A stretch of 64,000 nucleotides of DNA from a virus (Duplodnaviria > Caudoviricetes), in IMG/VR virus record IMGVR_UViG_3300031857_000014; one strand, given 5' to 3'. The notes under the pieces are model-generated. The model worked only from the letters and a program-made list of their open reading frames with translations, was not told the origin of the DNA and made no database searches. The number at the start of each line of letters is the position of its first letter. Within the stretch, counting starts at the first letter, position 1. The position numbers and the translations under genes are program-made. Of this stretch, positions 37,789 to 37,922 are shown in pieces.

Positions 37789-37922
37789 TAAGGGTTGAAC
37801 GGGGAATGAAGATAATATAGATACCTGTTGGTGGGTGGGCTATATCTTCGGAGTTGAAACTAACGTTAGTAATGCCGTTCATAAAAGAAGTTGTCCACTC
37901 GACCATCCTCTTCTTTCCCTTA
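37789..37922 (+). ncRNA. Candidate structured ncRNA (multibranch with loop-loop pairing)
   Basis: TAAGGG/CCCTTA, TGAACGG/CCGTTCA, GAAGAT..ATAG/CTATATCTTC, AAAGAAG/CTTCTTT; loop GGTGGGTGG can pair with loop CCACTCGACC. Confidence 0.6.

Follow-up and report, generated by a model that had tools for sequence, protein, structure and literature searches.

Positions 37789-37922 on the plus strand of a 64,000-nt stretch of phage DNA (hereafter the window) encode what, on the evidence of comparison with its relatives, is a genuine structured RNA gene. The predicted fold of the 134-nt RNA is a tight three-way junction in which a closing helix (P0) holds together two arms (P1 and P2), and in the window's subtype the distal part of P1 forms a pseudoknot. 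Sequence searches place the element in a large, phage-specific and uncatalogued family that comprises at least about 160 copies, most of them in or beside tRNA arrays. The fold, the family and its surroundings are described below, and the roles that they suggest are weighed against each other.

Results

Location and surroundings of the element

The element lies 5 nt behind the stop codon of an open reading frame (ORF; stop at 37783) and directly in front of a tRNA-Asp(GTC) gene. A tRNA-Arg gene is found 845 nt upstream. Besides the element, the plus strand carries tRNA-Arg, tRNA-Asp, tRNA-Glu, tRNA-Met, GOLLD RNA and tmRNA (Rfam 15 and ARAGORN calls); GOLLD (39817-40220) follows 1.9 kb downstream and tmRNA occupies 48677-49094, both within the RNA island around the element. 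The window copy therefore shows the same-strand placement in or beside a phage tRNA/tmRNA cluster that is typical of the family. The preliminary description of this DNA, whose coordinates and quoted sequence strings proved correct when the window was read again, had placed the element just before tRNA-Asp, and the tRNA gene indeed starts at 37928, 5 nt (UUUUU) past the closing helix. Since it begins 5 nt after an ORF stop and no promoter of its own is visible on inspection, the window copy could be made as part of a polycistronic precursor only. The features of the element are compiled in Table 1.

Table 1. Features of the RNA element and its 3' border, listed in 5' to 3' order
Feature	Sequence	Position	Strand	Partner or remark
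P0, closing helix, 5' strand	UAAGGG	37789-37794	+	pairs with 37917-37922
P1, 5' strand	UGAACGG	37796-37802	+	pairs with 37875-37881
P1 internal loop, 5' side	GGAAU	37803-37807	+	unpaired, beside P1; conserved
Pa hairpin domain	GAAG + AUAUAG / CUAUAU + CUUC (3' strand: CUAUAUCUUC)	37808-37849	+	
Pb (tentative, 3 bp)	ACC / GGU	37823-37825 / 37834-37836	+	inside Pa; encloses the PK1-forming loop
PK1, 5' strand	UGUUGGU	37826-37832	+	Pa/Pb loop; pairs with 37859-37865
T1, 5' strand (probable)	GUUGA	37853-37857	+	in conserved linker GGAGUUGAAA; proposed partner UCGAC, 37899-37903
PK1, 3' strand	ACUAACG	37859-37865	+	5' half of a palindrome
P1 internal loop, 3' side	AGUAAUG	37868-37874	+	unpaired; conserved
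P1, 3' strand	CCGUUCA	37875-37881	+	pairs with P1 5' strand
Junction between P1 and P2	UA	37882-37883	+	invariant in 94 members
P2 hairpin	AAAGAAGUUG, loop UCCACUCGAC (37894-37903), CAU, bulge CCU, CUUCUUU	37884-37916	+	
P0, 3' strand	CCCUUA	37917-37922	+	pairs with P0 5' strand
Spacer	UUUUU	37923-37927	+	between closing helix and tRNA-Asp (37928-38000)

Two further observations concern the neighbourhood. The gene directly upstream (37241-37783, +) encodes a very acidic protein of 180 aa that has no PHROG family, and a pattern search of IMG/VR yielded no relatives of it. Two gene-free spacers, 38001-38129 (129 nt) and 38250-38367 (118 nt), lie within the RNA island on either side of an anticodon-less tRNA look-alike; neither contains an Rfam or tRNA call, and they might hold more small RNAs.

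Search for known RNA families

The Rfam search that the preliminary description had proposed as a check was negative: none of the 4227 models of Rfam 15 overlaps 37789-37922 at its gathering score, and in a 3.6-kb search no match overlapping the element appeared at E<=10. Nor was there any match at E<=10 for the minimal relative L011:5588-5666 (79 nt, searched within 121 nt), and members in 12 other loci likewise showed no Rfam family. Neither ARAGORN nor the Rfam tRNA model (RF00005) calls a tRNA on the element, and inspection reveals no UUCRANY loop, cloverleaf, T-loop, anticodon loop or 7-bp acceptor stem.

A large family in phage-type sequences

Use of the small membrane-protein gene at 36507-36929 as an anchor led to 40 related phage loci. 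With blastn and nhmmer, the element was recovered from four of them at 85% identity, and its 3' half from four others. A near-invariant block of the alignment was turned into the motif AAAGNNGNTGTCCACNCNNCCATC (the P2 motif) for a scan of IMG/VR, and at least 120 contigs matched, which gave at least 103 distinct sequences. A second, independent scan was anchored in the P1/junction block with the P2 loop left free; it contributed about 30 further IMG/VR members. Family members are 79 to 165 nt long. The family model R1, with 127 positions, aligns with the window copy from end to end (94.4 bits, E 2.8e-20). An exact 24-mer taken from the window had no match in the IMG/VR collection searched, so the window's own contig lies outside that collection.

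No family member was present in 50,697 GenBank phages, where the window region matched by its tRNA-Asp alone. Among 185,579 prokaryotic species (one genome each) the motif gave 65 matches, four of which are true members. The remaining 61 were discarded as unrelated stretches, most of them coding-like (e.g. an AIR-synthase-like frame in Bacteroidales). The four true members are all located on small contigs of metagenome-assembled genomes (MAGs): two contigs of <2 kb assigned to Bacteroidota, and two binned as Micrarchaeota. The latter pair, L209 (31.8 kb) and L223 (38.1 kb), binned as Candidatus Micrarchaeota, shares with the member L229:1501-1583 a variant P1 (GGTTATTTAGG / GCTAAATGT) and a CCCCC loop. 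Either the members in archaeal bins are wrongly binned phage DNA, or the host range is wider. R1 had no match in 151 sampled Bacteroidota genomes, and a P1 pattern gave nine chance matches in 401 Bacteroidota genomes, none accompanied by P2 and none a true member. Within the phage and cellular genomes searched, the family is thus seen in phage-type sequence only. We found no published description of it in the literature.

A three-way junction supported by covariation

Folded as a single sequence, the plus strand of the element reaches a minimum free energy of -36.7 kcal/mol (z -1.44; matched by 16 of 200 shuffles), and the minus strand is likewise not significant (z -1.94). The case for a structure is made mainly by comparison with relatives. 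Helices P0, P1 and P2 were imposed on an alignment (A3) of 94 distinct members, in which 97% of the core-helix cells hold standard pairs and eight pairs change on both sides (123 cells). Core covariation amounts to 0.207, as compared to 0.093 in shuffles (0/500) and <=0.067 in slid controls. Covariation was a point on which the preliminary description had let its proposal depend, and the core exceeds all 500 shuffles. The multiway junction that it had drawn is backed by covariation as the three-way junction P0/P1/P2, and its individual helices are upheld, namely P0 (UAAGGG/CCCUUA), P1 (UGAACGG/CCGUUCA), Pa, and P2 with a C-rich loop of 10 nt.

P0 is short (3-6 bp). Its inner AGG/CCU is nearly invariant, and its outer pairs, formed in about 60% of members, covary (UA 44, AU 14, GC 1). 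P1 is paired to 99.7% over the 94 members, and four of its seven pairs show changes on both sides, with exchanges of GC/AU, UA/CG/AU and UA/CG; the window and L001 have AACGG/CCGUU in place of the AUUGG/CCAAU of most members. In P2, the lower stem is paired to 98.9%, and one of its pairs occurs as CG (35 members), UA (29), GC (22), AU (5) and UG (3). All 21 core pairs can form in the window except for one U-U in upper P2. The strands of the junction measure 1 nt (U), 2 nt (UA) and 0 nt, the last of which would let P2 stack directly on P0.

About 30 nucleotides of the RNA are near-invariant and unpaired. They comprise G-R-A after the 5' strand of P1, AG(U/A)AA.G before its 3' strand, the UA junction, a CUU bulge and the P2 loop. 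GGGGAA is invariant in all 32 members of the window's subtypes, and other subtypes keep G/A-R-A. Within AGUAAUG, residues A82, G83, A85, A86 and G88 show little or no variation in the 94 members. The P2 loop is the most conserved segment of all; part of this conservation was built into the first search motif, but the scan anchored outside the loop still regained the framework UCCAC....CC. Every family invariant is present in the window: GGAAU, AGUAAUG, UA and UCCACUCGAC (loop UCCAC....C).

The strand is fixed by two lines of evidence. One position of P1 is a U.G pair in 68 of 94 members and would be a C-A mismatch on the other strand, and the tRNA/tmRNA genes within 2.5 kb of family members are without exception co-oriented with the element (504/504). 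Given a large family with covarying helices and the lack of an Rfam 15 match, the earlier assignment as a structured non-coding RNA (ncRNA) of no known family is supported.

The distal insert of the window's subtype forms a pseudoknot

Inserts at the tip of P1 range in length from 16 to about 100 nt and can be sorted into several subtypes that are unrelated to each other; the signature of the window's subtype is GGGGAAKG...GGAGUUGRAA. An outer Pa stem of 6-10 bp is present, in different sequences, in all 27 members of subtypes A/B (the window's subtype and its sister). For the tentative Pb, the variants ACC/GGU, GCC/GGC, ACCC/GGGU and ACG/CGU were read among the members, and a crude count bore the helix out in part. 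The pseudoknot PK1 is paired to 95.7%, with both-side changes in four of seven pairs and a covariation of 0.50, as compared to 0.255 in shuffles (0/500) and <=0.13 in slid controls. In each of the 51 distinct members the two strands are complementary over a run of 5 nt or more, and RNAalifold recovered PK1 unprompted. This pairing replaces a hairpin that the preliminary description had seen in the palindrome ACTAACGTTAGT: as a hairpin, the palindrome is 69% paired in 17 relatives, shows no compensatory change and covaries less than shuffles, and its 5' half, ACUAACG, pairs in PK1 instead.

Proposed contacts of the P2 loop

A kissing contact between the loops GGTGGGTGG and CCACTCGACC, likewise put forward at first reading, had to be given up. 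It is 68% paired with covariation no better than slid controls, its G-rich tract overlaps PK1, and the rest of that tract is accounted for by the tentative Pb. In 93 members from all subtypes, complementarity between insert and P2 loop did not go beyond that of composition-matched shuffles (mean z -0.08). What is probable instead, with moderate support, is that UCGAC in the P2 loop pairs with the linker GUUGA as a tertiary helix, T1. The candidate helix is 92% paired. At position 70/114 the 51 distinct members have G-C (28), U.G (20) or another combination (3), and at position 69/115 all 51 have U-A or U.G; the evidence thus consists of exchanges of G-C for U.G and a second variable pair, all among related sequences. 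If T1 forms, the Pa/Pb insert with PK1 would make the window's subtype a compact, doubly pseudoknotted RNA.

Other partners for the P2 loop were considered. The only target within the window is the element itself. A match of the loop to GGGUGCGU, which we take to be a stretch of Bacteroidota 16S rRNA, was dropped, since variants of the loop do not track GGGUGCGU. In subtype B, pairing of an insert GGUYG with CRACC of the P2 loop was rejected; these bases covary with a local RRC triplet (AAC/GUU, GAC/GUC, AGC/GCU, AGU/ACU).

The RNA might also excise itself from its precursor, as a new class of self-cleaving ribozyme or as a catalytic RNA of another kind. In favour of this are the compactness of a fold with two pseudoknots (one of them the probable T1), its invariant unpaired nucleotides, and the strings AAUGCC and AUAAAAG, which we take to be reminiscent of twister. 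However, no known small-ribozyme model (twister, twister-sister, pistol, hatchet, hammerhead, HDV) matches even at E<=10, including in the 121-nt search; both ends would already be defined by RNase P/Z sites, and the borders show no conserved candidate cleavage dinucleotide. We consider self-cleavage very unlikely.

Genomic context across the family

A tRNA or tmRNA gene is found within 2.5 kb in 99 of 129 loci and in the other 30 there is none, so the tRNA context is not obligatory. Where it exists, spacing is close on both sides. CUUUCC is followed at a distance of 4-10 nt by the start of a tRNA in 50 of the 129 loci, and these tRNAs vary widely in identity (Tyr, Thr, Arg, Met, Leu and others); tRNAs that precede the element stop 1-4 nt short of P0. 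By this spacing the element fills a tRNA-sized slot. In L070 and L115, a promoter-like TAnnTTTG box followed by a boxA-like sequence (AGTTCTTTGAGAT / AGTTGTTTGAAAT) is located 30-50 nt upstream of the element. The preliminary description had read the element as an independent ncRNA whose 3' end RNase P would free. This reading is supported by the tRNA-sized slot in same-strand arrays and by the promoter-like and boxA-like leader of some relatives, with processing and independence both deduced from context.

The same arrangement could be taken to mean that the RNA acts in cis, as a folded spacer of a polycistronic tRNA precursor that prevents tRNA misfolding or presents ends to RNase P or RNase Z and is then degraded. 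At many loci the element is flanked by tRNAs no more than a few nucleotides away on either side, the window copy stands 5 nt upstream of tRNA-Asp, and P2 sits on P0 with no linker, resembling a T-arm on an acceptor stem. Against a mere spacer argue the 30 loci in which no tRNA is near, the promoter-like leader that some members have of their own, and the fact that most tRNA junctions in the same arrays manage without such an element. Near-invariant unpaired nucleotides, two pseudoknots (one of them the probable T1) and co-resident paralogous subtypes also exceed what a spacer needs. We judge this explanation unlikely.

The RNA could also regulate the tRNA or gene that lies downstream, by sensing a ligand or in the manner of an attenuator. 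Some backing for this comes from the three-way junction with touching arms, as in purine and other riboswitches, from the start of a small ORF 17-43 nt downstream in a few relatives, and from the run of five U residues after the window copy. Yet no single conserved gene lies downstream of the family, and no protein family is linked to it in more than 27 of 160 neighbourhoods. This lack of a conserved neighbour speaks against a cis-regulator of one gene, and also against a dedicated protein partner encoded next to the element. Moreover, there is no conserved terminator/anti-terminator alternative, most relatives carry CCUAAA and not a U-run after the element, and members stand in the middle of arrays and in tandem. 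Regulation of this type is extremely unlikely.

Tandem arrangements, in which two copies stand head to tail with 3-5 nt between them, are found at L056:5521-5648 and 5652-5784 and in L086, L142, L091, L118, L149 and L155. Tandem copies differ in insert subtype and in the P2 loop (GCACCC vs UGAACC), which suggests paralogues with distinct specificity.

Among the loci examined, the family module was never found inside a tRNA variable arm. The gene at L048:1408-1575 (-) resembles tRNA-Asp(GUC) and is about 165 nt long, of which the variable arm makes up about 75 nt; a family member follows 4 nt behind it. It is called by neither Rfam nor ARAGORN. Its short-armed counterpart at L079:5425-5520 (-) is called as tRNA-Asp.

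Discussion

Proposed role of the RNA

On balance we lean, by a modest measure, towards an RNA that is excised, stable and active in trans, and that uses its invariant surfaces to bind a conserved partner, probably of the host, in tRNA or translation metabolism. An elaborate covarying fold, about 30 near-invariant unpaired nucleotides and the lack of a linked protein gene together point to a conserved cellular partner. The RNA would be transcribed on the strand of the tRNA operon. Its 5' end would be produced by 3' processing of the upstream gene (RNase Z), and its 3' end by the RNase P cut at the 5' end of tRNA-Asp. The excised RNA would persist as a stable species and act in trans. In the predicted fold, P0 closes the junction, and P1 contains an internal loop rich in purines (GGAA / AGUAAUG) and bears the swappable distal insert; the internal loop of P1, the P2 loop and the junction would offer single-stranded surfaces to the conserved partner, for which a host factor in tRNA or translation metabolism is the most plausible candidate. 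We infer processing, stability and partner, the RNase P/Z steps from gene spacing alone.

One alternative is that the RNA is a decoy in the shape of a tRNA, in which P0 and P2 stand for the acceptor and T arm and P1 for the D/anticodon side, and that it titrates a tRNA-binding host factor such as a defence nuclease that cleaves tRNAs or an enzyme that processes or modifies them. Its tRNA-sized slot within tRNA arrays, the linker-free joining of P2 to P0, the apparent contact of the distal P1 arm with the P2 loop, like that in the tRNA elbow, and a CCA within the P2 loop would all agree with such mimicry. On the other hand, ARAGORN and the Rfam tRNA model are blind to the element, it possesses neither a T-loop sequence nor a 7-bp acceptor stem nor a 3' CCA, and its coaxial stack would be about 15 bp and not 12; the analysis also brought up no defence or enzyme partner. 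Mimicry of a tRNA seems to us distinctly improbable.

A bolder version holds that the family is a new functional class of RNA directed at the tRNA/translation machinery of the host, either catalytic, or a high-affinity decoy that counters tRNA-targeting defence or retargets a processing enzyme, with the swappable insert and the co-varying P2 loop setting specificity. We offer it as a speculation with a rather small chance of being right. If insert and P2 loop do set specificity, the occurrence of two different subtypes in tandem would be explained. A decoy or a ribozyme, if either were true, would add a new RNA-based layer to the way in which phages take over or protect translation. For the trans-acting RNA that we favour, the boundaries, the 127-position model and the 79-nt minimal version are usable for structure work, pull-downs and phage genome annotation.

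Comparison with known systems

With regard to tRNA (RF00005), the family resembles it in array slot, strand and spacing and in a terminal helix that is predicted to be continuous with the 3' hairpin, but differs from it by the lack of a cloverleaf, T-loop, anticodon loop and 7-bp acceptor stem. The junction of purine riboswitches offers another parallel, as there too a closing helix bears two arms and a tertiary contact compacts the junction. In the family, however, the junction is much tighter (1, 2 and 0 nt) and has no Rfam match, and the RNA is not situated in a 5' UTR and lacks an expression platform. The resemblance is one of architecture only.

GOLLD (RF02032) and ROOL are phage and prophage RNAs of unknown function that are often found near tRNA islands, are pseudoknotted and form multimeric cages (PMC12286853, PMC5737381). 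They are 5-8 times larger than the RNA described here and show no similarity to it, cmscan being empty at the element. In 11 neighbourhoods sampled around family members, no GOLLD was present.

The closest analogues, by context only and apparently not by homology, are rnaC and rnaD of phage T4 (species 1 and species 2; 139 and 119 nt), which are annotated as small stable RNAs in NC_000866. Like the family, they are small RNAs whose function is unknown, on the tRNA strand of a phage tRNA cluster and a few nucleotides away from tRNAs. When fetched, folded and compared by inspection, they showed no elements of the family core: rnaC ends in a tRNA-like T-arm and acceptor, unlike the family, and rnaD is without a P1/P2 core. 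T4 is moreover an enterobacterial phage, whereas the family belongs to phages of Bacteroidota. That phage tRNA clusters contain additional small stable RNAs was established with T4 in the 1970s, and to our knowledge a role for them was never found. The RNA of the window represents a new family within this long-known class, and it indicates that extra stable RNAs in tRNA clusters are widespread in uncultivated phages of Bacteroidota.
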